Positions 40,362 through 53,709 are shown, counted from the stretch's first letter. The stretch: DNA of 64,000 nucleotides from Longimicrobiales bacterium (GCA_965249725.1 CBDFMQ010000002.1:2240001-2304000); one strand, 5' to 3'. Translations and numbers: made by a program. The notes: generated by a model not told the origin, from the sequence alone.

Positions 40362-40573
40362 GGTCGTGGATAAGCTCCTGTGTGGTTGTCTTGCGTGTAT
40401 ACACTGCAACTCATCCGGCGCTTCGGCGGCTGCCGACTCCTTCCTCCGACAGCGTTCTCCCCGTGGGAGGCACGCGAACCCCCCGATAGCGAACCGGCCC
40501 GCAAGGCCGGCGAACCTGAGTGGCATATCCAACGGATATGTCTACGAGGGTTCGATGTAGATCACAGGCGAGA

Positions 40574-40593
40574 GCTTGAGTCAGGCGTTACGT
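40574..40593 (-). repeat. Truncated attC-like half site (family A), array end
   Basis: gcttgagtcaggcgtta identical to the end of the 44727-44868 element. Confidence 0.75.
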
Positions 40594-40683
40594 GACGTGA
40601 GTGCGGTCAAGGTACCGCGTCGGGGGCTCAGAGAACCGCGAGCAATCCGTCCAGAGACTCCGCCAGACTGCAGCAATCGCTTC

Positions 40684-41655
40684 TTAGCCGGCCACCTCCC
40701 CTGCGGCGCGGGAATCAACCTCTATTAGGCCAGGTCGCGGATCTCGACGGACTCGCAACTCGAAGACGTCAGGGCGCGAATAGTGCCCCGCTATGTCCAA
40801 CTGCCAGCGAGGTCCGACAAGTTGATCCGGTTCTATATCCGCGTAGAGAATGCCTTCTTCCCCCTCCAGCGGTCCCGCAACGACCTTGCCGTCTGGATCG
40901 ACGATCAGACTGAGGCCTGGATTCAGCCAGCCCTCCAACTCAGCCAAGTACTCGTCCTTGAACGCCAGGTGATCCGGCACATCGTCTTTGTGGAAGGCCT
41001 GGCACGCCGCGATCACGAAGCAGCGCCCTTCTTTCGCCACGTGCCGCATGGTCGAGATCCACGGCTCTCCGCGGTCCCATGTTGGAGCCACGTGAACCTG
41101 CTCTCCCCACGCCGTGAGTGCGTAGCGAGCCAGCGGCATGTAGTTCTCCCAGCACAGGAGTCCGCTGAGGCGTCCGAATGGGAGATCGAACACTTCGAGG
41201 TCACTGCCTGCGGCCTGCCCCCACACTAGCCGCTCACCAGCGGTCGGGATCAGTTTCCGGTGCTTTCCGAGCACGCGTCCGTCCTGGCCCAGGTAGAGCA
41301 GCGTGTTGTAGAGCGTTGAGTCGCTGGCCTCTGAGTTCCTCTCGTTCACCCCAATCGCAACGGTGACACCGCAATCACCGGCGGCGTCAGCCAAAAGGCT
41401 CACCTCGGGCCCAGGAATGGAAACGGAATTGCCGTGGAGCTGAGCGTAGAGCTCCCGGAGGGGGTGCGTCTTTCCCGGCGGGATGAACCAGACCCACAGT
41501 GGATAACCGGGCACGAACGCCTCTGGGAACGCGACGAGCGTAGCCCCCGCGTTTGCGGCGGCCTCGATCAGTTGGCACGCCTTCGCAATCGTGGCGTCCA
41601 AGTCTAAGAACACAGGGGCGGCTTGGACCGCCGAGATTCTGAAGGGTTCCGACAC
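40684..41655 (-). CDS. Nitrilase (cassette)
   Basis: FPEAFVPGYP, HRKLIPT, CWENYMP (E-K-C triad). Confidence 0.95.
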   Translation of the reverse strand: MSEPFRISAVQAAPVFLDLDATIAKACQLIEAAANAGATLVAFPEAFVPGYPLWVWFIPPGKTHPLRELYAQLHGNSVSIPGPEVSLLADAAGDCGVTVAIGVNERNSEASDSTLYNTLLYLGQDGRVLGKHRKLIPTAGERLVWGQAAGSDLEVFDLPFGRLSGLLCWENYMPLARYALTAWGEQVHVAPTWDRGEPWISTMRHVAKEGRCFVIAACQAFHKDDVPDHLAFKDEYLAELEGWLNPGLSLIVDPDGKVVAGPLEGEEGILYADIEPDQLVGPRWQLDIAGHYSRPDVFELRVRRDPRPGLIEVDSRAAGEVAG

Positions 41656-41718
41656 CGTCCTGGGTCTCCTTCTTCAAGGGTCCGTCCAATCTGTGATTGT
41701 ACTTCGAAAACTCATGTC

Positions 41719-41861
41719 CGATAACGGGCTCACGGACTCAAGACGCGGAGGTGGCGAAGCCACCGGAGTGTCCGCGAAGCGGCCGGCCCGTTGCTCACGT
41801 TAGAGCTTCGCGCTCCAGAGCGACAGCGGACCCAGGGCCATGCGTGAGTCTGGCGTTATCG
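41719..41861 (-). repeat. attC-like element, family A
   Basis: CGATAACGGGCTCACGGACTCA...TGAGTCTGGCGTTATCG. Confidence 0.85.
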
Positions 41862-42004
41862 GGCGTGAGTGCGGTCGCACCATCACGATCGCGCCAGTGC
41901 GATGCACTCCACCTTGCGCCGACGCCGGTTGAGAGTAGCCCTTCCCCCAGGCCCTCTGATCCGTTATACGTACATTTGGATATCACTCATACGTAGGGGG
42001 ACCT

Positions 42005-42235
42005 GTGGCCAAGACCAAACTCACGTTGTCGGTCGATAAGGCTTTGGTGGTGAAGGCGAAGCAGTTCTCGCAGAGGAACGAGACAACGGTCTCGGAGTTG
42101 GTATCACAGTTTCTGGCGTCGTTGGACGATGACCGTGGGATAGCGGCACCCATTACCTCACGCCTTCGTGGCATATTGCCTTCTAGCGTCGAACGCGAGG
42201 GATACCGCGAACATCTCGAGGAGAAGCACGGGTGA
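42005..42235 (+). CDS. DUF6364-like antitoxin
   Basis: KTKLTLSVD...ITSRLRGIL; overlaps PIN gene. Confidence 0.85.
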   Translation: MAKTKLTLSVDKALVVKAKQFSQRNETTVSELVSQFLASLDDDRGIAAPITSRLRGILPSSVEREGYREHLEEKHG

Positions 42236-42648
42236 CGCGGGTGCTACTCGACGTCAACGTGGTGCTCGACGTCTTGGCTGACAGGAAGCCTTTCGCAGAG
42301 GAGGCTACCGCGCTATTCGGCGTGATCGAAGCCGGTGGACTGCACGGCTTCGTGGCGGCCCATACGATCACCACGCTTCACTATCTCCTGGCGAAGCACC
42401 TTGGGAAGGCGAAGACGCGCAGGGTGTTGATGGACCTACTTCAGCTACTCCGAGTGGTGGAGGTAGATGAGGATCGTCTGCGGCATGCGTTGGGACTGAA
42501 TTGGACCGACTTTGAGGATGCCGTGCAGGCAGCCTGCGCGGAGAAGGCGGAGACGGACTATCTCGTAACCCGGGACAAGAAGGGATTCACGCGGTCCGCG
42601 GTGAAGCCGGTAACGCCTGCCGAGTCGTTGGTCCTGATCCAAGAATAG
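42232..42648 (+). CDS. PIN-domain (VapC-like) toxin
   Basis: VLLDVNVVLD, DFEDAVQ, LVTRDKKGF. Confidence 0.9.
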   Translation: MTRVLLDVNVVLDVLADRKPFAEEATALFGVIEAGGLHGFVAAHTITTLHYLLAKHLGKAKTRRVLMDLLQLLRVVEVDEDRLRHALGLNWTDFEDAVQAACAEKAETDYLVTRDKKGFTRSAVKPVTPAESLVLIQE

Positions 42649-42691
42649 ACCGAGCTAGCTGATTAGCGTGAGCACCTCCAACATTCATGTC

Positions 42692-42835
42692 CGATAACGG
42701 GCTCACGGACTCACGACGCGGAGGTGGCGGAGCCACCGGAGTGTCCGCGAAGCGGCCGAGCCGCTGGTCATCGTAAGACCCGTCAGCCTACTCGCGAAAG
42801 CGAGCTGAGGCTCGAGCTTGAGTCCGGCGTTATGT
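42692..42835 (-). repeat. attC-like element, family A
   Basis: CGATAACGGGCTCAC...TGAGTCCGGCGTTATGT. Confidence 0.85.
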
Positions 42836-43014
42836 GGCGTGAGGGCGGTCACGGCGCCACATGAGCTCGAGTGCAATGCACCCCACTTGCTCTGTCAGAG
42901 TTAGGCGGCCTCCGGTTGAGCGAATCAACAGCCGGCCTCGGCTCACAAAGCACCTGTGATTGAGTCCTCCTCGTCCCACACAAGAACCCCCAAGGGTCGT
43001 CGTGGCGCCAACAC

Positions 43015-43764
43015 CTAGCTTATTAGCGAAAGCCCCCAGGACCTCATCGTGTCCGTGGTGCTAAGTCCTGCCGCCGCACCTACCAGTACGATCAGGCCGA
43101 CAAGACCTCCCAGGAGCACCCAAGGTGGTCGCCGCCGTATGATCCAGTCGCTCCCAATGACCGTGACGACCAAGGCGAGCATCGACAGGGGGAACCACAC
43201 GTCCATTGCGTTTTCGACGCCGGACCGCCGCCAGATGCGATCGATCGCCGGAAAGACGATAGTGATGGACGCCAACAGCATGAAATGCTTATGGATTTGA
43301 GGTGTCCGCCGGTAGTACGCCGCACTCCCCACAAAGATGGTGAATACCAACAGGAAGGCGATGTTCACGCAGAGGTCGAGCACGGCCTCCGCCATGAACG
43401 CCAGTGCCCGTTCAGGGCCCACCAGACCAACGAGGCGATGCGGGATGAACAGAAGTGTCGTAACTGCGCTTGCTACAACGACGGGGATGGCCAAAAGGAG
43501 CCCCGCAGCGCCGAGTCTTCGGTGCAGGTCTGGGCGACGCGACGCGATCAACAGCGTCTGCGTGAAGAACACGACAAACCAGGCCGTGAGAACCCCGCCG
43601 TGTACGTGTATGTAGAGGGGTAGCTCGGGTGTCTCGAAGAAGACCTTGAGAAAGAAGCTTGGTGAGAAGCCGACCAGGACGATCACGAGTAAGACACCGG
43701 CAGTCACCACAAAGAATCGATCGTACAGTTGTGCGCCACCCCACGAGCGTGTTCCGTTGCTCAA
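43015..43764 (-). CDS. Multi-TM membrane protein (cassette)
   Basis: About 7 TM helices; HVHG, LHRRLG, HKHFML. Confidence 0.8.
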   Translation of the reverse strand: MSNGTRSWGGAQLYDRFFVVTAGVLLVIVLVGFSPSFFLKVFFETPELPLYIHVHGGVLTAWFVVFFTQTLLIASRRPDLHRRLGAAGLLLAIPVVVASAVTTLLFIPHRLVGLVGPERALAFMAEAVLDLCVNIAFLLVFTIFVGSAAYYRRTPQIHKHFMLLASITIVFPAIDRIWRRSGVENAMDVWFPLSMLALVVTVIGSDWIIRRRPPWVLLGGLVGLIVLVGAAAGLSTTDTMRSWGLSLIS

Positions 43765-43861
43765 CCTTTGGAGTCCTGTGGCTTCGAGACTTCACACCAC
43801 GGTGTCAGAGTTATTAAGACCGTCTAGCTAAGTTAGTGATTGCACTTCAAAAACTCATGTC

Positions 43862-43980
43862 ATATAACGGGCTCACGGACTCACGACGCGGAGCAGAGCC
43901 ACCGGAGTGTCCGCGAAGCGGCCGAGCCGTTGGTCATCGTAAGACCCGAGCTGCCGGAGCGCGACAGCGCGGAGGCCCTG
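43862..43980 (-). repeat. attC-like element, family A, right end lost
   Basis: ATATAACGGGCTCACGGACTCA... with no closing GTTA. Confidence 0.75.
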
Positions 43981-44021
43981 CATCGAGACGGGATCAGGAC
44001 GGCATCGCTAGGCCATCGGTG

Positions 44022-44660
44022 TCAGTCTTCGCCGCCCGGGGTGGGACGGGCCTGGGATACAAACAACCCCGTCACGCCACCATGTACCAACACCGACAGC
44101 GCGACGTACATACCCGTCGGTCCGCTCTGGGTAATCGCGCCGACAGTGACTGAGGTGAGCAGTCCTGCGGCTACGCCGAGGGTGCTGCCAAGGAGCGCGC
44201 GGCCCGACGAAGGTGTGCCGTTGGCACGACGAGCGCCTGCGTGGGCGCCGATGGCGCCTCCGACCCACCCTCCGACTAGGTAGCCCAATGCTCCCCCAAC
44301 ATCGCAGTCATCGTAGCCGCAATCCGAGGTGAGTGACTGACCGATGAGGTAGCCCAGCGCCACGCCCGTTCCGGAGCCAATCACGCCTCCGAGCACCGCA
44401 GTGCTCCGCAAGCGACCTGAGACGGTGTCCTCCTGTGTCACCCGGGGCAGCCGACTCGGTAAGAGCGATTCACGACTACCCGCGCAGTTCGCCGAAGAGC
44501 CGGGCAGAGGTGTCACGAGCAGCGAGCCCGGTTCCGCCGAGCCCACGCGGGGGTTCGCTGGAGCGTTTCGGTCCAGTGAGCCAGTCGCGCATCCGGCTGC
44601 GAGGACGGCCGCCACAAGAGGTGGGAAACGGCAAGTCAGCATAGGCCCTCCAAGAACCAA
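44022..44660 (-). CDS. Hypothetical Gly-rich membrane lipoprotein (cassette)
   Basis: LAAGC lipobox; glycine-zipper-like helices. Confidence 0.6.
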   Translation of the reverse strand: MVLGGPMLTCRFPPLVAAVLAAGCATGSLDRNAPANPRVGSAEPGSLLVTPLPGSSANCAGSRESLLPSRLPRVTQEDTVSGRLRSTAVLGGVIGSGTGVALGYLIGQSLTSDCGYDDCDVGGALGYLVGGWVGGAIGAHAGARRANGTPSSGRALLGSTLGVAAGLLTSVTVGAITQSGPTGMYVALSVLVHGGVTGLFVSQARPTPGGED

Positions 44661-44726
44661 CGCGGTCGCTACGACCGATGGCGCTCGTCTTCAATAACTC
44701 GTGATGCTACTGCAAAAACTCATGTC

Positions 44727-44868
44727 ATGTAACGGGCTCACTGACTCACGACGCGGAGTGCCGAAGGCACGGAGTGTCCGCGAAGCGGCCGGCCTGCTGC
44801 TCACGTTAGAGCTTGTAGCCTACCAGCGACAGCGGCTCCGAGGGCCGTGCTTGAGTCAGGCGTTATAG
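44727..44868 (-). repeat. attC-like element, family A
   Basis: ATGTAACGGGCTCAC...TGAGTCAGGCGTTATAG. Confidence 0.85.
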
Positions 44869-44881
44869 GACGTGAGTGCGG

Positions 44882-45250
44882 TTACTCCTCGCTCGCTGGT
44901 GTAGCAGGCTCTCTCAGACGTGCGCCGAGAAACCCCCCGAGACACGCGGCTATAAGGCCAGAAGCGAGGAAGGGCAAGTCGTCCCCGAAGAAGGATGCGA
45001 ATTGTCCAGAGGAAATCAGGCCGATCGTGACGAGTAGCAAACCGGGGGCAACTACCCACAACCCCCATCTCCAGGCACCACCCGGCCAGAGGATGCCGGG
45101 AAGTAACCCCGCGGCACCGAAAATGGCCGTTGAAATGAGGATCGCTGTGGCGAAAGACGGCGACTCCAATGGCAGGTTGGCTGGCGCGGCTGCCGCGAGG
45201 AGACCGAGGAGGACGGCGATCACGTAGGCGTAGCGTGGCTGCCGGTTCAT
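44882..45250 (-). CDS. Small membrane protein (cassette)
   Basis: Four hydrophobic segments; fills the inter-site space. Confidence 0.7.
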   Translation of the reverse strand: MNRQPRYAYVIAVLLGLLAAAAPANLPLESPSFATAILISTAIFGAAGLLPGILWPGGAWRWGLWVVAPGLLLVTIGLISSGQFASFFGDDLPFLASGLIAACLGGFLGARLREPATPASEE

Positions 45251-45313
45251 TGGGACTTCCTCTGAGATGGTGATCGTCGTCCAACTAGTCGTTTAACTTC
45301 GAAAACTCATGTC

Positions 45314-45457
45314 CGATAACGGGCTCACTGACTCAAGACGCGGAGGTGGCGGAGCCACCGGAGTGTCCGCGAAGCGGCCGGCCCGCTGCTCACGTTAGAG
45401 CTTCCAGCTTCCCCGCGACAGCGGACCCGAGGGCCGTGCGTGAGTCTGGCGTTATGT
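45314..45457 (-). repeat. attC-like element, family A
   Basis: CGATAACGGGCTCAC...TGAGTCTGGCGTTATGT. Confidence 0.85.
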
Positions 45458-45622
45458 GGCGTGCGCTTGGTCTCGTGACGAAAACGCCACCAAAATGGTG
45501 CGTCCGCATGGACAAGACGGTGATGGGATCATTGAGACGAAATCAGTAGTAGGACGTCACAGGATACGATGAGCCGTCCAATCCACCTGGATGTCGGCAA
45601 GGTCCGGTAGAGTGAGGTCCCG

Positions 45623-46135
45623 ATGAAGAAGTGGTTGCGGCGCATCCGAGGTGCGGTCGGAATGGGATTGACGTGGGCGGCTGGGTGGGCACCCATAGGA
45701 GCTGTCGTCGGCCTGGTGCTGGGAGTCGTTATGCCCCCGGTTCTCGGCCTTGGTGCAGTCGTCGCACTCAACGCTAAGGCCTTCGCCGCACTGGGCTTCG
45801 TAGGTGGGACGCTCTTTTCGACGGTCCTCCGGCTAGCAGAAGGTCGTCGCAGGTTCGATGAGTTGGCGCTTCCACGATTCGCCGCCTTGGGCGCGCTGGG
45901 GGGCTTTCTGCTAGGAGGGCTCGCAGTCACGCTGGGGATGTGGGGTTCGGGTTTCCAGGCTTTGGGTGTCGCGATCACCGGCATAGCCACCCTACTGGGC
46001 GCGGGCTCTGCGGCCGGTTCGCTTGCGCTCGCGCGAAAGGCTGACCAACACGAGCTGCTCGAGGCCGGTGCCGACGTGGCGGACGTTGGATTGACGGAGG
46101 AGGAGAGGCACCAATTGCTTGAGGGCCCGGCTTAA
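45623..46135 (+). CDS. Membrane protein (cassette, opposite strand)
   Basis: GAGG RBS; four TM helices. Confidence 0.75.
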   Translation: MKKWLRRIRGAVGMGLTWAAGWAPIGAVVGLVLGVVMPPVLGLGAVVALNAKAFAALGFVGGTLFSTVLRLAEGRRRFDELALPRFAALGALGGFLLGGLAVTLGMWGSGFQALGVAITGIATLLGAGSAAGSLALARKADQHELLEAGADVADVGLTEEERHQLLEGPA

Positions 46136-46231
46136 CTCTCGCATGAACCGAGTTTCTCGATGGCTCGGGCCCGCAAGCGATGCGCGCGCGCCGGACAGCC
46201 ACTCTGAGTGATCTATGCGGGAGCGCATGTC

Positions 46232-46380
46232 ACATAACGGGCTCACGCGCTCCCGGCGCGGAGTGCGCGCCAGCGAACGGAGTGCCCCGAAGGGACGGGC
46301 CCGTTGGTCTCCACGATAGTGTCACAACAGGTAATGCGCGAAGGCGCACCGGAGGGTCCGGCGGGAGAGCGGCGTTATAC
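46232..46380 (-). repeat. attC-like element, family B
   Basis: ACATAACGGGCTCACGCGCTCCCG...CGGGAGAGCGGCGTTATAC. Confidence 0.85.
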
Positions 46381-46476
46381 GGCGTTCCCGCCCGCCCGCC
46401 TCGAGCAGTCACACGTTGGACGACGCGATCAAGATGCCGCACGCGGTTACGGCACCTGAGGGAAAGCAATCGCCTG

Positions 46477-47067
46477 CTAGACCTCTTCCTGGCCCGAATC
46501 TGCGGGAGTCGGCATCACCTTAAGCCGGGGATCCAAGATCTGTGCGGCGATCCAAAGGTACCAGACGAGAGTTGTCAGGCCATTGGCGATCTGTGCGTAA
46601 GAGCTCGACCTCGGTTGTGCGATACCGCTCTTCCAGTTCCGTAGTGTGGAGGGCTCCACTCCGAGCAGTCGAGCGAGATCACGTTGCGTCACGCACAGCG
46701 TCCGCACTGCATCGGACACGGTCTCCGGAGGAGCCAGACCGGATGTGGAGATCTCCTCGTCTTCGAAGAAGAGAGACCACAGCGGGTCGCCTGTGGTCAT
46801 GCGCTTGAAGCGAAGCCCGACGGCCCAGAAGTAAGCGACCTGACGTTGTCGTAGGCAGAGTTCGGCCAGCTTGCGGCGATAGAAACGACCCACGCTTCCG
46901 GACGAAGACCAGTTTCGGACTGTACCGCGCGAAAGCCCAAGGAACTCGGCGAGTCGAACTTGCGGTATGCAGAGGTCTTGGACGAAGCCCCCAGCCGTCA
47001 TCTCCTCGTAGACACGTTCCGCGTAGAACGTGAAATCAAGCAGCCCGAGGGACTCTAGTTCGGTCAT
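46477..47067 (-). CDS. Protein with two XRE-like HTH motifs (cassette)
   Basis: QVRLAEFLGLSRGTVRNW and QRDLARLLGVEPSTLRNW. Confidence 0.7.
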   Translation of the reverse strand: MTELESLGLLDFTFYAERVYEEMTAGGFVQDLCIPQVRLAEFLGLSRGTVRNWSSSGSVGRFYRRKLAELCLRQRQVAYFWAVGLRFKRMTTGDPLWSLFFEDEEISTSGLAPPETVSDAVRTLCVTQRDLARLLGVEPSTLRNWKSGIAQPRSSSYAQIANGLTTLVWYLWIAAQILDPRLKVMPTPADSGQEEV

Positions 47068-47451
47068 GCCTTGGGGTCATCGCCTGTACGTGGCGGACAA
47101 ATCATCATCCAGCCAGGACAGGCAGCTAGGACGGGCGAAATGCGTGGGTTGCCAGGCACCGTGTCCGCGGAAAAGCATGGAACGAAATGGACACATGGCA
47201 ATCTTTTTTTTCAAGAAGGCAAGCAGAATAAGCAACAGCGCTAGCAGCTTGCCAAACGGATCCGGAAGCAGGAGCTCAAGAAGGTCGATGAGCAACGACG
47301 GATCCAGGGCGTGATCCAGGATAAGGGCAGGCATGGCTAATGGACATTATAGCACGCATCAGCTGAGAGACCAAGCCAGAGAACGTGCATCCTGTTACGC
47401 TTCAGGGCCACCAGCTAATCCGCCGACGAACTGACCGCTATCAGGAATGCC

Positions 47452-47469
47452 GTATAACGGATTTTATAC
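47452..47469 (-). repeat. 18-bp mini junction site
   Basis: GTATAAC-GGAT-TTTATAC. Confidence 0.8.
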
Positions 47470-47498
47470 GGCGTCGTTTCGCCACGCCCTCCGGGACG

Positions 47499-47993
47499 CT
47501 AGCAGGGCGTAGCGAGTAGAGTATTGAATTCCGAACGGAATTCGGGCGAAAACGTGCCCCTCGTGGCGCACCAGCGCGGTTGGTATTGCGGGAAGGTCAT
47601 GAAGCCCCGCCACGCCTCCCGTTGGGCGGCGAACTCAGCCTCGTCGTACAGCCCCCGGCGGTACTGGTAGTGCACGTTCTCGAAGTACCGAAACATCGCC
47701 ATGGTGCGGTGGTTGAGCTGGACGGAATCCGTCGGCGTCAACGCTTCCGCCCTGTTCGCTCGCCTCACCAAGTCGGCCAGTTCAGGGTTTGTGGCGCCGT
47801 CACTCATCAGGTCGACAATCTGGACGGCTATCTCGTTCCTTGTCTGAGCCTCCATCATCTCTCGATTCTGTGCGAGTTCGAACGCCACGAGGAGGATCCC
47901 AGCCAACACACCGACCTCTGTAACGATAGTCAGCCATCGATTCAGTCGATCATGCTTCGGTCGTGACTGGTTCATCGCCGCCCTCGGATTCAA
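47499..47993 (-). CDS. Hypothetical protein with N-terminal TM (cassette)
   Basis: GVLAGILLVAFELAQN; YFENVHYQYRRG. Confidence 0.75.
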   Translation of the reverse strand: MNPRAAMNQSRPKHDRLNRWLTIVTEVGVLAGILLVAFELAQNREMMEAQTRNEIAVQIVDLMSDGATNPELADLVRRANRAEALTPTDSVQLNHRTMAMFRYFENVHYQYRRGLYDEAEFAAQREAWRGFMTFPQYQPRWCATRGTFSPEFRSEFNTLLATPC

Positions 47994-48021
47994 CCGTTGG
48001 TTCTTCCTGCCTGCCGATGCC

Positions 48022-48165
48022 GTATAACGGGCTCACGCGCTCCCGACCGGAGCCGCATCGCGGCGTAGGTCCCGAAGGGACGGGCCCGTTGCCCTTCACG
48101 ATAGTGCCTGTCCGTCCATCCCGCGAAGCGGGTCCGAAGGGCCCGGCGGGAGAGCGGCGTTATAC
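48022..48165 (-). repeat. attC-like element, family B variant
   Basis: GTATAACGGGCTCACGCGCTCCCG...CGGGAGAGCGGCGTTATAC. Confidence 0.85.
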
Positions 48166-48230
48166 GATGCGCCGGATCGGTGACTTTAGTCGTCACTCTC
48201 AGTGGCAACCCAACCGGCGCGGGGTTGTAG

Positions 48231-48248
48231 TATGTCGAAATTGACATA
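48231..48248 (+). promoter_or_regulatory. Palindromic operator of TA operon containing TTGACA
   Basis: TATGTC-GAAATT-GACATA just upstream of the toxin ATG. Confidence 0.6.
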
Positions 48249-48257
48249 GTTTCCACC

Positions 48258-48596
48258 ATGAGTCCTGACGACAAGCCGATCGTATGGATTGCCGGTGAGG
48301 TGAAGACGCCGCCTTTCTCCGCAGAGGCGAGGATTGAGGTGGGCATGCTGTTGCGACGACTCCAGAGGGGAGATCGTCTCTCGATGCCGCACTCGCGGCC
48401 GATGACTTCAATTGGACGAGGGTGTCATGAACTCCGGGTTGTGGATGAGGGCGCAACGTGGCGCATCGTGTACTTCGTGGACTCGGATGCAGTGGTGATC
48501 CTCGACGTGTTTTCGAAGAAGACGCGGGCGACACCGAAGCGAGTGATGTCGATCTGTCAGGGACGTTTGAGAGACTACAAAGAGGCTAGGCGGTAA
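48258..48596 (+). CDS. RelE/HigB (Gp49-like) toxin
   Basis: MPHSRPM, CHELRV, WRIVY, FSKKTRATP. Confidence 0.9.
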   Translation: MSPDDKPIVWIAGEVKTPPFSAEARIEVGMLLRRLQRGDRLSMPHSRPMTSIGRGCHELRVVDEGATWRIVYFVDSDAVVILDVFSKKTRATPKRVMSICQGRLRDYKEARR

Positions 48597-48617
48597 GCGC
48601 CCGAGGGAGACGCGAGA

Positions 48618-48950
48618 ATGGACAAGGCCACAAAGAAGAGACTTGAGCGGGCGGGGTGGAGCACCGGTGACGCCAAAGACTTCCTCGAACTCTCAGAGGC
48701 GGAGGCGGCGTTCATCGACATGAAGTTGGCTTTGGCAGAAGACGTCCGAGCTCTGCGCCTAAACAGACACCTGAACCAGACACAGGTAGCGCGAATCCTC
48801 GGATCCAGTCAATCACGGGTCGCGAAGATGGAGGCGGCGGACTCGAGCGTGTCGATCGATCTCCTCATCCGGTCCCTCTTGAAGCTCGGAGCGAAGCGGA
48901 AGGATGTCGCGAAGGCGGTAGCACGGAAGAGGGTTGAGGCAGCAACCTGA
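48618..48950 (+). CDS. XRE-HTH antitoxin (HigA-like)
   Basis: QTQVARILGSSQSRVAKME. Confidence 0.9.
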   Translation: MDKATKKRLERAGWSTGDAKDFLELSEAEAAFIDMKLALAEDVRALRLNRHLNQTQVARILGSSQSRVAKMEAADSSVSIDLLIRSLLKLGAKRKDVAKAVARKRVEAAT

Positions 48951-48980
48951 GCCCTAACGCCAGGTTGAAGTAGGCGTGTC

Positions 48981-48998
48981 GTATAACGGATTTTATGC
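48981..48998 (-). repeat. 18-bp mini junction site
   Basis: GTATAAC-GGAT-TTTATGC. Confidence 0.8.
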
Positions 48999-49021
48999 GA
49001 TGGAGGCCGGACACTACGCCA

Positions 49022-49050
49022 TTGACGTATGTGCGCCAATGGCGCATAGT
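49022..49050 (+). promoter_or_regulatory. Promoter/operator of the next TA operon
   Basis: TTGACG followed by palindrome TGCGCCAATGGCGCA (49032-49046). Confidence 0.6.
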
Positions 49051-49054
49051 TGTG

Positions 49055-49373
49055 ATGGTCATCAAGGAAACCTCCGTGTTCACGAGGCAAGTCGATAAGC
49101 TGCTCGACAAGGAGTCCTTTCGACTCCTTCAGCTTCGGCTCGTGGAGAACCCTGAGGCAGGAGATCTGATCAGAGGCACCTGGAGGGCTCCGCAAGATCC
49201 GTTGGCAGGGCTCGGGCCGCAGTAAGCGCGGGGGAGTCCGAGTGATCTACTATTGGGCCCGCGAGGATGAAGTCGTTCTCCTCCTTCTCATGTATGGGAA
49301 GAACGAGCCGGGCGACCTCTCTCCCCAACAACGGACGATTCTGAAGCGCTTGGTGGAGGAAGAATTCTCATGA
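49055..49373 (+). pseudogene. HigB-2/RelE toxin, frameshifted
   Basis: MVIKETSVF...GDLIRGT, one extra base near 49181, then GGLRKIRW...KRGGVRVIYY. Confidence 0.85.
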
Positions 49374-49657
49374 ATGACGATCTATTCAATGAACTCGTAG
49401 CGAGTGTTGAGGAGGGCGGAGCCATTCTTCGAGGGGAGAAGGAGGCCTCTCGGACTCACGTCGTCGAGGATCCCGACGTCGCCGCGATTCGAGAGGGGTA
49501 CGGTCTCTCTCAGGCGAAGTTCGCCGCTCTCCTCGGAATCAGCGTGAGGACGCTCCAGAACTGGGAGCAAGGACGTCGCCATCCCCATGGACCCGCGCGA
49601 GTGCTACTTCGAGTTGCCGCTCGCCATCCCCGGGCGGTTCTTGAGACTGTTAAGTAG
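49370..49657 (+). CDS. HTH antitoxin (HigA/NadS-like)
   Basis: SQAKFAALLGISVRTLQNWEQGRR. Confidence 0.9.
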   Translation: MNDDLFNELVASVEEGGAILRGEKEASRTHVVEDPDVAAIREGYGLSQAKFAALLGISVRTLQNWEQGRRHPHGPARVLLRVAARHPRAVLETVK

Positions 49658-49691
49658 CGACTCCCACTCGCCACTCGTTCGTACCTCCGTC

Positions 49692-49840
49692 GCATAACGG
49701 GCTCTCGCGCTCCCGGCGCGGGCTGAGCGCCAGCGAACGGAGTGCCCCGAAGGGACGGGCCCGTTGGTCTTCACGATAGTGCCGCACCCGCTAATGCGCG
49801 AAGGCGCGCCGAAGGGTCCGGCGGGAGAGCGGCGTTAGCA
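49692..49840 (-). repeat. attC-like element, family B
   Basis: GCATAACGGGCTCTCGCG...GAGAGCGGCGTTAGCA. Confidence 0.85.
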
Positions 49841-49856
49841 GACGTGCCGGTCCATC

Positions 49857-50657
49857 TCACCACCTGTCGGTGCGGAAGGATGATGCTGGAAGCCCAGCGT
49901 TGTTGAAGAGAGAACCGACAATCCAATTCGTCCAGGCGTATCGGACGGCGGTAGGATTCGGAACAGCTTCACTTGAGACACGCAGGTTTCCACCGCCAAC
50001 GATGACGGCTTCGGCGGGATGGAACACCTTGTCTTCACCCGCCACAGTGAAACTGGTCAACTCGCGGCCGAAACTGGATAGGCCGTCGGGTGCGTGGTCG
50101 AACTCCAGGACGGCTGCACCCTCTTCGACCGTGGAGGACGTGCTCGACGTGCCCTTCGGCGCCATTGACAGCTCTTGGGGCGGTACGCCGCATCGACTTC
50201 GGCCAACGCGTTGGACTTCAGCGCTATCGGGCATGCGTTCATCATCGTTGCTGCGCAGGACGGGTTGGCTGGGGTAGCCTCTGAAGGGCATTTGCATGTT
50301 GGACTGGCCAGACATGAGCCAAACTTCACCGACGACGACATCTTGGAATCGAACGGTCTCGGTCGCGTCACCCGTCCGGGCTTGGACGGAGAGCTCACGA
50401 GGCTCAGCGCTGGCCTCGGGAGAATCGAGGCGGATCATCCATCTCCCGTCGGCCGCGGAGGTAGTCGAGTAGGACTGCCCGGCGAAACGCACGGTGACCT
50501 GGGCGCCCGCAGCGGCCCATCCCCAAACAGGATCTGGAGCGCCGCGCTGCAGAACCATATGGTCGGAGAAGATCGATGGGAGACGAAGTTGAGCGGAAGC
50601 AGGGGCCGGAAACAGAAGCGCGGCAAGGACCGATAGATAGGCTACTCGTCGTGGCAT
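49857..50657 (-). pseudogene. Sialate O-acetylesterase, internally deleted (cassette)
   Basis: FSDHMVLQR, GEVWLMSGQSNM and C-terminal VRYAW...GLPASSFRTD present; central catalytic region appears missing. Confidence 0.8.
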
Positions 50658-50703
50658 AGGTGTGCTCCGTCCTAACTCGCCATTGTGAAGCTCAAAGCAT
50701 GTC

Positions 50704-50852
50704 TGCTAACGGGCTCTCGCGCTCCCGGCGCGGGCTGAGCGCCAGCGAACGGAGTGCCCCGAAGGGACGGGCCCGTTGGTCTTCACGATAGTGCCGCACC
50801 CGCTAATGCGCGAAGGCGCGCCGAAGGGTCCGGCGGGAGAGCGGCGTTACGC
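50704..50852 (-). repeat. attC-like element, family B
   Basis: Internally identical to 49692-49840. Confidence 0.85.
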
Positions 50853-50865
50853 GGAGTCGCGCACC

Positions 50866-51090
50866 CTAGTGGTGGGCCAGGTTCCGCACGTGGAGAATCT
50901 CGCGGGCCTCAATCGGACGCAGATCAGCGCTCGAAAGAGTGACGACCGCCACCGTTCCACCTTCCCCGGAGACGAATTCGACCTCATAGGAGTCGTCGGC
51001 GTGCCGATGCACAATCGCCCCGACGTCGCCCACCTCGAGTCCGGCATCTGGAAGGTCCCGGCGCAGAACGACCGTATCGAGCTCTTTCAT
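50866..51090 (-). CDS. DUF4926 protein
   Basis: MKELDTVVL...GDVGAIVH...YEVEFV. Confidence 0.85.
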   Translation of the reverse strand: MKELDTVVLRRDLPDAGLEVGDVGAIVHRHADDSYEVEFVSGEGGTVAVVTLSSADLRPIEAREILHVRNLAHH

Positions 51091-51094
51091 ACCT

Positions 51095-51172
51095 CTATCT
51101 CCGCGTCGGGTAAGCGGTTACCAGTACAGGGACATCCTCACCCGTGACCATCCATACGGTGCCGAGGGACAC
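51095..51172 (-). pseudogene. DUF6883-like C-terminal remnant
   Basis: GTVWMV...PVLVTAYP immediately upstream of DUF4926. Confidence 0.6.
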
Positions 51173-51296
51173 GAATCAACACGTCCTGCTGTTTCCAGTC
51201 GCTGGCCAAGTCCTCTTCAGAAATCTCGGACGTGAGCGACGAGACTCGCTCTAGCGCCTGAAGCATGTGGGCCAGAAAGGCCCGGTCACGATTCAT
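51171..51296 (-). pseudogene. HEPN/HepT (DUF86) toxin, truncated
   Basis: MNRDRAFLAHMLQALERV...QQDVLIR then similarity breaks. Confidence 0.7.
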
Positions 51297-51573
51297 CGAA
51301 GACGACGACGGCCGAGCCGAGAATGGACTCGCGCATGAAGGGGCTGATACCCGGCTCCGTCAGTAGGTCAACCGGGCGCCTGAAGAATCTGGCCAATTCG
51401 TCTTCGGCGCGGATCAACTCGAAATAGCCGATGCCGCTTCCGAAATCCGCGATCAAATCAACGTCGGAATCGGAATGCTCCTCGCCCTTGGCCGCGGACC
51501 CAAACATCCGAAGCCTGACAATGGCATGGCGACGACAACACTCGGCGAGCCGATCTTGATCAAACTGAACCAT
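51286..51573 (-). CDS. MNT minimal nucleotidyltransferase antitoxin
   Basis: FGSAAKGE..SDSDVDL; RPVDL. Confidence 0.9.
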   Translation of the reverse strand: MVQFDQDRLAECCRRHAIVRLRMFGSAAKGEEHSDSDVDLIADFGSGIGYFELIRAEDELARFFRRPVDLLTEPGISPFMRESILGSAVVVFDES

Positions 51574-51634
51574 GTCGAAAGGTCTCTCCTAACAACCTCC
51601 AACGTCAATCGGCACCCCTCACAAGTGCTTTGTC

Positions 51635-51652
51635 CGATAACGGATTTTATGT
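51635..51652 (-). repeat. 18-bp mini junction site
   Basis: CGATAAC-GGAT-TTTATGT. Confidence 0.8.
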
Positions 51653-51721
51653 GACGCGCCGTTGGTGGACCTCATCAATAGCTACGAAACCCCAAAGGAC
51701 CTAAGGCAAATCGCGGTCTGC

Positions 51722-52537
51722 TCAGTCCCAGGCGACCACCTCGACCTCGGTCGGCTCGTCGAACCCCTTGAGACTGATGGAGCCGAGCGAAGTGAACGAG
51801 AGGCCCTTGCCCATGCACAGATCCCGGACGACTCGGGCGGCCAGTATCTGACCTGGCTCGGCGTGATCGCAGATGCGGGATGTGAGGTTGATTGTCGATC
51901 CGAACAATGCGTCGCCGTCGAGAACGGGCTCTCCTGCCCCGATGCCGATCTTCGCCCGCACGGGGATGCCGTCCGCGCCGTCAGAGGCATCCGCAGTCAG
52001 CTTGGCCTGAATCGTCATGGCGCAAGAGACTGCGGCGAAGGCCGACTCGAAGCTCGTCAGGAATCCGTCGCCCGCGCGGTCAACCTCCCGTCCACCGTGC
52101 TCGACTAAAGCTGCTCTCACCGTGTTCCGATAACGTCGCACGACTTCGAGAGCTGCAGCATCACCCAGTGTTCGAGTGATGTCCGTCGAGCGGACCATGT
52201 CGACGAAGAGGATCGCTCGAAAGGCACTCTCTCGAATCGGCTCCGAGTCGACGCTTTCGGGATCGGCGACCCGACCGAGGAAATGCGCGACAGTGGTTGG
52301 GTCGACCTCGATGACTTGGTGGGGAATCAGCCCGTGAGCTTCTCGATGCATCTCCCGGACGGCCTCCGCTGAGGGAGCCTCGACGAGGCAGAAGGCGGCT
52401 CCCCGAGGCTCGTCGTACCAGTAGGTGAGGGCCTTACAGGAGTGTCTGCCCTGCACCTTGACGTCCTGGTGATGGGCCGCCGCCACTTCCTCTGAGGTCA
52501 CGTCCCGAATGTCGTGTCGATCCATGAATAGCGGCAT
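51722..52537 (-). CDS. DUF4242 domain plus class III nucleotide cyclase (first cassette)
   Basis: MPLFMDRH, FCLVEAPS..HREAHG; ILFVDMVRST, AGDGF, INLTSRIC. Confidence 0.9.
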   Translation of the reverse strand: MPLFMDRHDIRDVTSEEVAAAHHQDVKVQGRHSCKALTYWYDEPRGAAFCLVEAPSAEAVREMHREAHGLIPHQVIEVDPTTVAHFLGRVADPESVDSEPIRESAFRAILFVDMVRSTDITRTLGDAAALEVVRRYRNTVRAALVEHGGREVDRAGDGFLTSFESAFAAVSCAMTIQAKLTADASDGADGIPVRAKIGIGAGEPVLDGDALFGSTINLTSRICDHAEPGQILAARVVRDLCMGKGLSFTSLGSISLKGFDEPTEVEVVAWD

Positions 52538-52631
52538 GCGTACGTTTCCTTCCGTGGGGTCCGGCCCAATAGGACGAATCGAGGCTCGCTCTGCGCTTCA
52601 CCCGCCAATTGTACTACCCGACAGGCGTGTC

Positions 52632-52702
52632 ATGTAACGGGCTCTTCACGAACCATATCAAGTTATCCGCCAAACGGCGACGTCATAACGTCTGACGTCG
52701 CC
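52632..52702 (-). other. Candidate attI-like insertion site
   Basis: ATGTAACGGGCTC at the first cassette boundary with no full element behind it; neighbouring IR GGCGACGTCA/TGACGTCGCC. Confidence 0.55.
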
Positions 52703-52761
52703 AAGACGACCACGAGGCGACGCACGTCGCCGCCCCGGTCCCATAGCGATACGCCTACCCA

Positions 52762-53380
52762 CTACTCCTCCCGCAACAGCCTATCTAGCGGGCTCTCTAC
52801 ATCCGTGGCCTCCCGGCGTGCGACGTGCGTATACAGCACGGTCGTCTTGATCTGACTGTGGCCGAGCAACTTCTGGATGTAGCGAAGGTCGGTTCCGGCC
52901 TCGAGGAGATGGGTGGCGAAGGAGTGCCGGAGCACATGAGGGGTGACGGGTCGGTCGATCCCGGCACGTTTGGCGGCGGCCGCCACTTGCCGTTGTACGG
53001 TCCGGGTCGTCAGGTGACGGTCGCGGCGGTGACCGGCCGGGAAGAGCCAGTCGTGAGGCCGTTCTACCGCAGCGTACTCGCGGAGCACCGCCAGCAGCAC
53101 AGCCGAGAGCATCACGTAGCGGTCCTTGCCTCCCTTCCCGTCGCGTACATGGATCATCATCCGATCGGAGTCGATGTCCGAGACCTTGAGGCGTACGACC
53201 TCACCCACACGGAGACCGCTCGCGTAGAGGACGAACGCGATGGCTATCAGTCCGCGCTTCCAGAAAACGCCTGGTGTGGGCCAGATAGAGTCGCTTCGTG
53301 CCGCGGGCGAACCCGCGAAGCGCCATCTCTTCCTTCATCCGAGAGAGCAACTCCTCGGAGTGAGCCGAGCGCCTAGGGTC
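52762..53380 (-). pseudogene. Tyrosine recombinase with SAM-like N-terminus, internal deletion/frameshift
   Basis: LLSRMKEEMALRGFARGTKRLY in one frame; LYASGLRVGE, GKGGKDR, HVLRHSFATH, LLGH, TTVLYTH in another. Confidence 0.9.
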
Positions 53381-53709
53381 TTTTGGATGGGGCATTCCCA
53401 ACGCTGCACTGGCCAGTCGGGCAACTCCATAGCGCCTCGGGTCCGGGTGGGAAGTCGGGCACCACTCCCCGACCGGCGACTACATCATCAAGGTCGCCGG
53501 CGGAAAGGATCTGATGAGCACTCGCACGCACGGGACGGCGTCCCTGTGGTCGGATAGCGACGCCGATCTTCGTGAGGTCTTGGATGGTGTCGACGCGCTT
53601 CTCGCGGACCTACGCCCGTAGACGAGGACGAAGGCGGACCCCAGCCCGAGGTCGGTATGCGATAGATCGACTAGCGCTGGCCGATCGGGCCCGCCAGTAG
53701 CGATCAGAT

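Follow-up and report, generated by a model that had tools for sequence, protein, structure and literature searches.

A stretch of 64,000 nucleotides from a Longimicrobiales (Gemmatimonadota) chromosome, hereafter the window, probably carries an array of the integron type, with about 13 gene cassettes and with attC-like sites that fold as single-stranded DNA on the plus (bottom) strand. In the subclass to which it would belong, a short tyrosine recombinase gene lies upstream of the array in the same orientation. The analysis directly documents pairing between cassette ends, its cassette specificity, a fixed G·T wobble, a strand asymmetry, the inner structure of the sites and a link with the recombinase type; no recombination was observed, and all mechanistic statements are inferred from sequence.

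A motif search of the plus strand between 40584 and 52638 returned 13 left (TAAC|GG) and nine right (GGC|GTTA) junctions, which delimit 13 segments. Twelve carry two arms, while truncation of the site at 43865 leaves segment 3 without a start arm. Eight full site cores are present, all with TAAC/GTTA, and the attC-like sites between cassettes are 137–143 nt long. The features are:

40566–40590 (+): orphan right half of a type A core (repeat family D8), ending GGC|GTTA (right motif at 40584); distal array end
40587–41725 (−): segment 0, nitrilase-family gene at 40684–41655 on minus (CN_hydrolase match); own arms mismatched, run 4
41722–41858 (+): type A attC-like site, 137 nt from TAAC to GTTA (motifs and structure)
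41855–42698 (+): segment 1, DUF6364/PIN toxin–antitoxin pair on plus; arms 41855–41871 and 42682–42698, 17 nt paired, 3 G·T
42695–42832 (+): type A site (motifs)
42829–43868 (−): segment 2, 249-aa ORF on minus; arms 15 nt paired, 3 G·T
43846–43980 (+): type A site, right side truncated, GTTA absent; followed by segment 3 (to 44733) (motifs)
44730–44865 (+): type A site (motifs)
44862–45320 (−): segment 4; arms paired at 11/12 scored positions, A·G mismatch at position 6
45317–45454 (+): type A site (motifs)
45451–46238 (+): segment 5; arms 45451–45468 and 46221–46238, 18 nt paired, 3 G·T
46235–46377 (+): type B site, 143 nt (motifs)
46374–47458 (−): segment 6, HTH protein gene on minus; arms 15 nt paired
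47455–47467 (+): mini-site TAACGGATTTTAT, a junction without core (repeat family D14); identical 13 nt at 48984–48996 and 51638–51650
47463–48028 (−): segment 7; arms 14 nt paired
48025–48162 (+): type B site (motifs)
48159–48987 (+): segment 8, Gp49 (HigB-like)/HTH pair on plus; arms 15 nt paired, 2 wobbles
48992–49698 (+): segment 9, split small ORF and HTH antitoxin-like gene on plus; arms 15 nt paired
49695–49837 (+): type B site (motifs)
49834–50710 (−): segment 10, 266-aa ORF on minus; arms 14 nt paired
50707–50849 (+): type B site (motifs)
50846–51641 (−): segment 11, DUF4926 and nucleotidyltransferase genes on minus; arms mismatched, run 4
51646–52638 (−): segment 12, SCO4226-like/cyclase gene on minus, cassette nearest the recombinase; arms 15 nt paired, 3 wobbles
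52635–52761 (+): recombinase-proximal junction, TAAC|GGGCTC then unique sequence; candidate attI-like site, its motif TCACGAACCATATC common to the same place in related locus L141
52762–53479 (−): decayed tyrosine recombinase gene, N-terminal piece at 53201–53479 and catalytic part at 52762–53334 in another frame

The sequence-only reading had proposed that the two ends of a cassette pair over 14–18 nt and covary cassette by cassette in 10 of 13 segments, and this was borne out. With runs anchored at GTT/AAC and G·T counted as paired, nine of the 12 testable segments gave unbroken plus-strand runs of at least 14 nt, and a tenth (44862/45320) was interrupted by its single A·G. The individual runs were 4, 17, 15, 5, 18, 15, 14, 15, 15, 14, 4 and 15 nt on the plus strand and 5, 8, 5, 5, 8, 10, 10, 9, 9, 10, 5 and 4 nt on the minus strand of the same segments. 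Two of the 12 (40587/41725 and 50846/51641) failed to pair; the start arm of the former finds its best partner in the end arm of segment 3 at 44733 (score 12/12). Over positions 5–16, arms of the same segment paired at a mean of 10.5 of 12 positions, against 7.85 for arms of different segments and 8.0 for the two arms flanking one site, and the observed sum was reached in none of 100,000 permutations.

If strands are exchanged at TAA|C, as is most likely, each site is flanked on its outside by parts of two cassettes, and both ends of a given cassette would meet only after its excision as a circle. In that free circle the R stem would lengthen to 15–18 bp, with positions 1–4 conserved, 5–10 variable among cassettes, 11 a fixed G·T, and 12 to 15–18 cassette-specific. 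Such a stem would be expected to keep the free cassette's hairpin stable for re-insertion, and the mismatched flanks within the array would restrain excision there.

Mispairing within the stems is strongly strand-biased. At position 11, 11 of the 12 window cassettes have G·T on the plus strand and 27 of 33 cassettes from eight related loci have it on the strand that does not encode the recombinase, with no A·C at this position in either set. At positions 5–15 of the window, position 11 excluded, the plus strand showed 10 G·T versus 3 A·C; at other stem positions the counts were 27 and 7 (p = 8e-4). A second fixed G·T on plus lies inside the site core (13/15 sequences). The earlier statement that nearly all mismatches are G·T on plus thus holds for the direction of the bias, which consists mostly of one fixed G·T at position 11 plus a milder scattered component. 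The c-GAA-g loops were likewise confirmed on plus, CGAAG occurring 17 times there and once on minus in the eight full cores.

That the plus strand is the one that folds as single-stranded DNA, as the same reading held, is supported by fold stability as well as by the wobble asymmetry. Folding both strands in circle form, the check it had suggested, gave a more stable plus strand in all eight sites; with DNA parameters, plus was also favored at 7 of 8 sites folded as in the array and in 8 of 8 cases for the arms alone. The strands differed modestly in energy, by a mean of 1.8 kcal/mol for the array and 3.4 kcal/mol for the circle. Because the mispairs are G·T on the bottom strand and C·A on the top, only the bottom strand would form the full stem. 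The wobble would help strand choice, partly replacing the extrahelical bases that are read by the extra domain of IntI.

In canonical attC sites the L″ (3′) arm of the bottom strand bears an extrahelical G and an extrahelical T; no such bases were seen in the covariation-supported consensus of the window family, and inspection by eye suggested an additional 3′-arm T in one related family (L143). From outside to inside, the predicted site fold comprises the R stem (TAAC/GTTA), a one-sided internal loop, an 8-bp inner stem and a branched tip. Across the inner structure 95.6% of cells were paired, against 31–45% in slid controls, and 10 of 20 pairs showed compensatory changes. In the window family consensus the 5′ side of the internal loop has 7 nt and its 3′ side 2 nt, unlike the unpaired central spacer of 5–6 nt on each arm described for canonical attC (Nivina 2016, PMC5027507); some related families look two-sided by eye. 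Long attC sites with branched tips, as in the window, have been described (Nivina 2016, PMC5027507; Loot 2017, PMC5371416). Shared with canonical sites are the conserved AAC/GTT in all eight full sites and a purine-rich, more stable bottom strand. An Rfam search of the window gave no match.

In canonical attC, the folded bottom strand is recombined between the A and C of AAC. The plus strand here most likely corresponds to that bottom strand, with the cut at TAA|C on the left of each site. The sequence-only reading had instead placed the crossover at G|TT read on plus; this is probably not correct, five lines of evidence favoring minus as the top (coding) strand and a TAA|C cut at the opposite site end. 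Pfam-supported genes of the window outside toxin–antitoxin modules lie on minus, the plus-strand ORFs being three toxin–antitoxin-like pairs, and 9 of 11 Pfam-supported ORFs in relatives (53 scanned) lie on the recombinase strand, with PIN and HTH as the two exceptions. The position and strand of the recombinase support the same assignment in the window and in 9 of 10 related array-bearing loci. Recombinase-adjacent junctions retain the AAC-side arm only, and the three mini-sites retain TAACGG and have lost GTT. All eight cores are purine-rich on plus, with positive GC and AT skew, and a purine-rich bottom strand that folds more stably than the top is an attC criterion (Loot 2017, PMC5371416). 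Moving the cut from G|TT to TAA|C changes which site is assigned to which gene and leaves the arm partners unchanged. Among the loci compared, no cassette common to two arrays with different neighbors was found. Between arrays only a 55-nt leader homology, ending at TAAC, was seen; the recombinase-proximal junction of the window holds a 10-bp perfect palindrome at about 52676–52702.

The neighboring recombinase, a pseudogene here and intact in sister genome G002 (278 aa), is by sequence comparison related to IntI and XerA and lacks the extra domain of IntI. About 41 residues of the IntI-specific insertion are missing from both the window remnant, itself about 52 codons shorter, and the intact ortholog. 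Scores fell below the cut-offs of TIGR02249 (204 bits versus 265) and NF040815 (219.6 versus 220), and among relatives of solved structure XerA scored best (4a8e, 153 bits), with VchIntIA lower (2a3v, 134.7 bits, split over two stretches). In each of the 15 fetched homologs the alignment to IntI falls into two blocks and skips IntI residues of about 208–259, and none of their 15 loci contains a true IntI. A quick tree did not resolve the insertion-less recombinases as one clade (backbone support 60), and it placed the genome's two Xer-like clades apart from the array recombinase. No intact copy of the array recombinase type was found in the 95.8%-complete genome; a true IntI (335 bits) lies 1.26 Mb away and might use these sites.

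Of the 15 homologs, 10 have an adjacent array, which in 9 of the 10 is on the 3′ side and co-oriented; at locus L152 the recombinase is divergent from the array. The cassette detector, a heuristic that needs pairing at positions 4–7 and may miss or mis-call sites, by itself found arrays in 9 of the 15. In eight related loci from other genera (33 cassettes) the median run was 16 and 24 of 33 runs reached at least 14, compared with a median of 9 and 4 of 96 runs reaching 14 in a control set of cassettes beside true IntI (Mann–Whitney p = 5e-10). Moreover, positions 12–18 in the other genera are unrelated among cassettes and complementary within each. In the 96 control cassettes, which include Gemmatimonadota loci L026 and L030, Watson–Crick pairing was 79, 68, 57 and 55% at positions 8, 9, 10 and 11 and dropped to background at position 12 (29%), and the fixed wobble was absent. 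Long outer pairing is therefore not normal for canonical cassettes, but the earlier figure of about 4 nt for canonical pairing beyond the core, which follows the textbook R box, was too low, since such pairing often reaches position 11. The textbook R box is 7 bp (Nivina 2016, PMC5027507; Loot 2017, PMC5371416); because the control is graded to position 11, the window extends a graded rule rather than jumping from 7 to 18.

Sedentary chromosomal integrons consist of IntI, attI and attC cassettes, and in their 'inverted' arrangement intI is co-oriented with the cassettes. The array resembles them in its short, mostly promoterless cassettes with toxin–antitoxin modules in either orientation, its imperfect palindromes bounded by AAC...GTT, its complementary cassette ends and its one purine-rich, better-folding strand (Nivina 2016, PMC5027507; Loot 2017, PMC5371416). 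Unlike in integrons, the recombinase beside these AAC...GTT cassettes is without the defining domain specific to IntI. In the free cassette the R stem would measure 15–18 bp with a fixed G·T at 11, versus 7 bp in the textbook case and about 11 bp in the true-IntI control. The sites of the window family differ from canonical attC in their one-sided spacer, and no 3′-arm extrahelical bases were seen in them. The Xer/dif systems (XerC/D and archaeal XerA) include XerA, the best-scoring solved relative of the array recombinase, and the Xer binding arm, at 11 bp, matches the 11-position pairing limit; however, they use one double-stranded chromosomal site of 28 bp for dimer resolution and are not known to have cassette arrays or hairpin sites, whereas the window has many 137–143-nt sites in array. 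The term CALIN denotes clustered attC sites from which an integron integrase is missing (Cury et al. 2016, PMC4889954). An annotation pipeline would give the region this label for its several attC-like sites, with IntI out of reach but present elsewhere in the genome; the label is operational, whereas the array has a specific recombinase of another type in a position conserved across genera. Finally, rAID-1 clusters of Bacteroidales comprise a 5′ XerD-family tyrosine recombinase followed by co-directional genes with repetitive intergenic sequences, 'reminiscent of integrons' (Ross et al., bioRxiv 10.1101/471110); the type is recognized by >44% identity of the recombinase to one from Bacteroides fragilis and by the low GC of the co-directional genes after it. 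The architecture resembles that of the window array, but phylum and gene content differ, the window has no recognized immunity-gene array, and the rAID-1 description in the available text of that preprint gives no hairpin structure, arm pairing or wobble.

The array could instead be an ordinary chromosomal integron remnant (CALIN) moved by the true IntI of the genome, its long arms the upper tail of the normal R-box complementarity within cassettes and its short recombinase irrelevant or a degenerate IntI. The genome does encode a bona fide IntI (335 bits), whose own array shows perfect arm pairing of 13 and 11 nt in 2 of 4 segments; true-IntI arrays elsewhere reach 12–15 nt in 19 of 96 cassettes, and IntI enzymes accept diverse attC sites (Cury 2016, PMC4889954). 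We nevertheless consider this explanation unlikely, given that the short recombinase occupies the same place and orientation in 9 of 10 array-bearing loci (15 fetched, several genera) with IntI absent nearby, that the position 11 G·T and pairing beyond 12 are absent from the 96 true-IntI cassettes, and that the window sites have neither a two-sided 5–6 nt spacer nor visible 3′-arm extrahelical bases.

Two further explanations appear far less probable. Pairing might act in RNA, plus-strand transcripts folding with G·U and the sites or arms serving as terminators, insulators or processing signals; structured RNA, too, typically shows fixed wobbles and compensatory changes, and three toxin–antitoxin modules are transcribed on plus. 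Against so improbable a role stand the location of most cassette genes on the opposite strand, where the same positions become C·A, the lack of an Rfam match in the window, and a junction logic that fits site-specific recombination, in which arms travel with the cassette, the last junction is single-armed and the recombinase is co-located. Equally implausible is an absence of selection for pairing, with the arms as the conserved edges of a longer repeat and the G·T excess as a product of C-to-T deamination on the more often single-stranded strand. Arm parts are indeed conserved across window cassettes (CGTGAGTGCGGT on the right, AAAACTCATGTC on the left), but arms from different cassettes pair much worse than arms within one, positions 12–18 in other genera are complementary within cassettes despite being unrelated among them, and deamination would scatter mispairs, whereas at position 11 both partners, G and T, are fixed (38 of 45 cassettes).

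An integron-type array of the subclass found beside a short recombinase is the reading we prefer, and we found no published description of such long-stem, wobble-marked arrays in the literature. Tentatively, a second gene-capture system, independent of IntI, may exist in Gemmatimonadota. In it a short IntI/XerA-like recombinase lacking the domain that reads extrahelical bases would move the cassettes, strand choice would be encoded in fixed G·T pairs at R-stem position 11 and in the core, and each cassette's own 4–10 bp stem extension would hold the free-circle hairpin shut. A smaller point from the control is that the ends of ordinary chromosomal integron cassettes often pair to position 11, not 7. 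Current integron finders would label arrays of the present kind as integrase-less clusters; pairing beyond position 11, G·T at 11 and a co-oriented short recombinase provide a signature by which to search for them. Use of folded single strands by integrases, and their strand choice, have so far been explained through the extra domain of IntI and the extrahelical bases it reads. Attachment sites with attC-like hairpins beside a recombinase without that domain offer a natural and direct test of the minimal requirements, and their design, with strand asymmetry written as fixed G·T wobbles and cassette-specific long stems, may show how a strand is chosen for folding without the classical integron enzyme.

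On the + strand, the region between 40584 and 52638 contains 13 TAAC|GG junctions and nine GGC|GTTA junctions, which together bound eight full sites of two types. We call the cassette between sites a segment and its two ends arms, anchored at GTT (start) and AAC (end), with stem positions counted from the anchors.

40566-40590, + strand: orphan right half of a site
starts 41722, 42695, 44730 and 45317, + strand: four type A full sites, 136-138 nt from TAAC to GTTA
43865, + strand: type A site with a truncated right side
starts 46235, 48025, 49695 and 50707, + strand: four type B full sites, 138-143 nt
47455-47467, 48984-48996 and 51638-51650, + strand: three 13-nt mini-sites, TAACGGATTTTAT
52635, + strand: last junction
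array right end, - strand: tyrosine recombinase gene, with 124 nt between its 3' end and the last junction
cargo on the + strand (Pfam): DUF6364/PIN; Gp49/HTH pair; small split ORF 5' of an HTH antitoxin-like gene
cargo on the - strand (Pfam): nitrilase-family gene; HTH protein; DUF4926 and nucleotidyltransferase; SCO4226-like/cyclase protein

Each segment carries one or two small genes, and on sequence grounds the region has the composition of a chromosomal integron cassette array. The small ORF 5' of the HTH antitoxin-like gene (48995-49372) looks split, with one frame stopping at 49225 and another running to about 49372, and probably represents an addiction-module toxin gene with a frameshift.

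The sequence-only reading had proposed that the two ends of each cassette pair over a long stretch and covary per cassette. Anchoring start arms at GTT and end arms at AAC, and counting G.T as paired, we observed unbroken + strand pairing of 14-18 nt in nine of 12 testable segments; pairing in a tenth is broken by a single A.G mismatch, two have unpaired arms, and one further segment lacks a start arm. Runs at the same positions of the - strand reach only 4-10 nt. Of the 12 positions from 5 to 16, an average of 10.5 are paired between the two arms of one segment, compared to 7.85 between arms of different segments and 8.0 between the two arms flanking one array site, and the same-segment sum was matched in 0 of 100000 permutations. 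Arm pairing is thus cassette-specific, as proposed.

Several irregularities accompany this pattern. The start arm of the nitrilase segment (40587-40606) does not match its own end arm; it pairs at 12/12 of the positions scored with the arm that ends segment 3 (44714-44733), a segment that has itself lost its start arm. This swapped match suggests a past rearrangement or deletion that fused parts of two cassettes. At the mini-sites, the 13-nt sequence alone joins two cassettes, the site core being absent, and a mini-site with its neighboring arms is predicted to fold into a simple hairpin whose loop has 6 nt. The five bases 3' of TAAC in the mini-sites, GGATT, are also the start of the site family beside the genome's bona fide integron integrase (true IntI). 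A second, more degraded cluster of the window's site family lies 10-14 kb past the window end (G000, the window's own genome, C3:2314268-2318632), where some right ends read GTCAG in place of GTTA. In a BLAST search of 60 relatives, this family turned up only in the other two genomes belonging to the genus, with weak matches in two more; metagenome pattern scans for it returned no match, nor did an Rfam gathering scan of the whole window.

The recombinase gene beside the array is broken, its N-terminal piece and catalytic part lying in different frames, and is ~52 codons short. The sister genome G002 encodes an intact ortholog (63% identity), identically placed and oriented, next to a small array built from the window's site family. 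Aligned with true IntI proteins, this ortholog is missing ~41 residues of the IntI-specific insertion; it scores 204 bits against TIGR02249 (cut-off 265) and 219.6 against NF040815 (cut-off 220), and its closest solved relative is XerA (4a8e), followed by VchIntIA (2a3v). In a quick tree, IntI proteins formed one clade (support 100), and the insertion-less, or short, recombinases fell outside both this clade and the genome's two Xer-like clades, without resolving as a single clade. The array-adjacent recombinase is not an integron integrase. The genome's true IntI (335 bits) is encoded at C3:1028959-1030008 and is accompanied by a site family distinct from that of the window: the locus (C3:1022199-1030008) contains an array of ~100-nt sites of the form TAAC GGATTGCGATT ... 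AATCGCTT GTTAG 3' of the gene and a tRNA gene 5' of it. Because the recombinase at the array is no longer functional and the window's genome yielded no intact gene of the short type, the array is probably a relic, unless it is a target of the true IntI.

Of 301 genomes sampled across the class, 41 contained short recombinase homologs (45-60% identity), and we fetched 15 of these loci. All 15 proteins align to IntI as two blocks with the insertion skipped, and none of the 15 loci contains a true IntI. A heuristic cassette detector, demanding pairing only at positions 4-7 plus a chain of sites, revealed arrays in nine of the 15, or ten loci with G002, whose sites came from a profile search. The array lies 3' of the short recombinase and co-oriented with it in nine of the ten; locus L152 (G025:C3:1-15000) is the only one in which the recombinase is divergent from the array, as in classical integrons, and its recombinase frame contains one TGA. 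Eight counted loci yielded 33 distinct cassettes with a median run of 16 and runs of at least 14 in 24/33, a sample of related genomes rather than independent observations.

Locus L143 (13338-17988; genome G139) contains about eight near-identical 200-nt units. The 18-nt arms are identical in all of them, and every unit has a full site; the units look like empty or minimal cassettes, tandemly amplified. On a Longimicrobiales chromosome (OZ252253; locus L021, 9734-11866), a true IntI gene whose match to the query begins only at residue 121 is directly followed on the same strand by an insertion-less recombinase gene. In two genomes (seven places in G011, four in G283), identical multi-copy genes encode proteins of 297-308 aa related to the short recombinase at 40-45% identity, which suggests a mobile element carrying such a recombinase.

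With all arrays oriented by the recombinase, tabulating pair types by position revealed a consistent stem profile. Watson-Crick pairs fill positions 1-9, and imperfections are frequent at position 10. Read on the strand that does not carry the recombinase gene, position 11 is a G.T pair in 11 of 12 window cassettes and in 27 of 33 cassettes from relatives, and A.C in none; the GTT-side arm supplies the G and the AAC-side arm the T. Among the relatives, Watson-Crick pairs occupy positions 12-15 in 29, 29, 30 and 29 of 33 cassettes and positions 16-18 in 21, 20 and 14, with background reached from position 19, and the sequences at positions 12-18 are wholly unlike between cassettes. Mispairs other than position 11 are also skewed (27 G.T versus 7 A.C, p = 8e-4). 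The earlier description of mismatches as nearly all G-T on the + strand therefore holds as a bias toward that strand, but its largest share is the fixed position-11 pair rather than scattered wobbles. Membership of the conserved A/T at position 11 in a start codon was considered and rejected: the ATG occurs in the window's family and is absent in locus L142.

To place these stems against ordinary integrons, the same detector was applied to 80 control loci around diverse true IntI genes, where it found chains in 17 loci, comprising 96 cassettes. The available text of Nivina et al. 2016 (PMC5027507) and Loot et al. 2017 (PMC5371416) describes a 7-bp R box in which the 4 variable bp may stay unpaired within an array. 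In the controls, Watson-Crick pairing at positions 8-11 was 79, 68, 57 and 55%, falling at position 12 to 29%, which is background; ordinary chromosomal integron cassettes from many phyla are thus often paired to position 11, beyond the textbook 7, and then no further. This corrects the sequence-only reading, which had put canonical pairing past the core at only about 4 nt. Equally long outer pairing is nonetheless not normal in canonical cassettes: the control median run was 9, with runs of at least 14 in 4 of 96. The controls showed no fixed wobble, with a weak G.T excess (36 versus 25, p = 0.2), and no position-11 wobble; both this absence and the pairing limit extend to the Gemmatimonadota loci L026 and L030. 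Four segments in the array of the genome's own IntI gave runs of 13, 11, 4 and 4, the 13 and 11 being perfect and without the position-11 wobble. Other detectors were set aside: a local-alignment hairpin finder recovered zero sites, known ones included, because the sites are branched, and an energy-only finder (5 loci, 16 segments) was too strict and was superseded by the chain rule. A blind scan for GTT...AAC inverted repeats of at least 14 nt gave 53 matches in the 80 integron loci (973 kb) versus 55.6 with decoy anchors, and 6 versus 0.6 in the window's array; it is too noisy for a survey.

Five lines of evidence point to the - strand as the probable top strand and to the + strand as the bottom strand. 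All Pfam-supported genes of the window outside the toxin-antitoxin class lie on the - strand, and the + strand ORFs are three toxin-antitoxin-like pairs; such pairs in known arrays have their own promoters. Pfam matches in related arrays (11 of 53 ORFs) follow the same orientation, with nine on the recombinase strand and two exceptions, PIN and HTH. Added to gene orientation are the place and strand of the recombinase; the last junction, which here and in related loci retains the AAC-side arm alone and is followed by unique sequence (with TCACGAACCRTATC common to the window and locus L141); the mini-sites, which retain TAACGG and lack GTT; and the purine skew, all eight cores being purine-rich on +, as the available text of Loot et al. 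2017 (PMC5371416) describes for bottom strands of non-Vibrio attC sites. The opposite assignment, with - as bottom strand, draws on extra spacer bases on the 5' arm of + and was rejected because of the gene orientation, the position of the recombinase, the junctions and the purine skew. With + as bottom strand, the cut would fall at TAA|C by analogy with integrons (Nivina et al. 2016, PMC5027507, available text), in place of the G|TT crossover on + that had been proposed. This reassignment alters which site belongs to which gene and leaves the arm partners as they were, since the same cargo is flanked by both arms either way. A search for a cassette common to two arrays, which would map the crossover, returned only site-to-site matches and one 55-nt leader. 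At 52676-52702, flanked by the last junction and by the stop codon of the recombinase gene, an exact 10-bp palindrome (GGCGACGTCA ... TGACGTCGCC) with a 7-nt loop containing TAAC could be a terminator or part of an entry site.

Folding with DNA parameters favored the + strand in 7/8 sites in array context, in 8/8 when the core was folded with both arms of one cassette (means -47.2 versus -43.8 kcal/mol) and in 8/8 for arms alone, although the energy gaps are modest. The eight cores contain 17 copies of CGAAG on + and a single copy on -. The proposal that the + strand folds as single-stranded DNA, with GAA loops on that strand, is supported by these comparisons and accords with the canonical bottom-strand rule. 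The inner fold, which covariation supports, comprises a one-sided loop (7 nt versus 2 nt), an 8-bp stem and a three-way tip. Across 15 sequences from four genomes, 95.6% of cells were paired (slid controls, 31-45%), and 10 of 20 pairs had changed on both sides. Inside the core, 13 of 15 sequences carry a second fixed G.T on + (alignment A3 columns 24 and 55, ~20 and ~50 nt after TAAC), within a helix otherwise backed by compensatory changes.

Sedentary chromosomal integrons are the closest described system, and CALIN, as defined in the available text of Cury 2016 (PMC4889954), is the label an annotation pipeline would assign to the region. The rAID-1 clusters of Bacteroidales, in the available text of Ross et al. 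(10.1101/471110), have a 5' XerD-like recombinase, co-directional genes and integron-like intergenic repeats. In the published literature that we searched, including the available text on rAID-1, we found neither long stems specific to a cassette nor fixed wobbles at its ends described.

Within the array, the flanks of each site are arms of two different cassettes and pair poorly. The full stem would form only in a free cassette circle, or when the ends otherwise meet in single-stranded DNA. An Xer-type binding arm is 11 bp, and by analogy the outer edge of such an arm would coincide with position 11, where pairing ends in true integrons and where the wobble sits in these cassettes. In the circle, a 15-18 bp stem may keep the recombinase-binding part of the hairpin closed against a kilobase of single-stranded cargo, with the G.T pairs allowing the full stem on the bottom strand only. 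Such asymmetry, encoded in the DNA, may be what a recombinase relies on when it lacks the domain for reading extrahelical bases.
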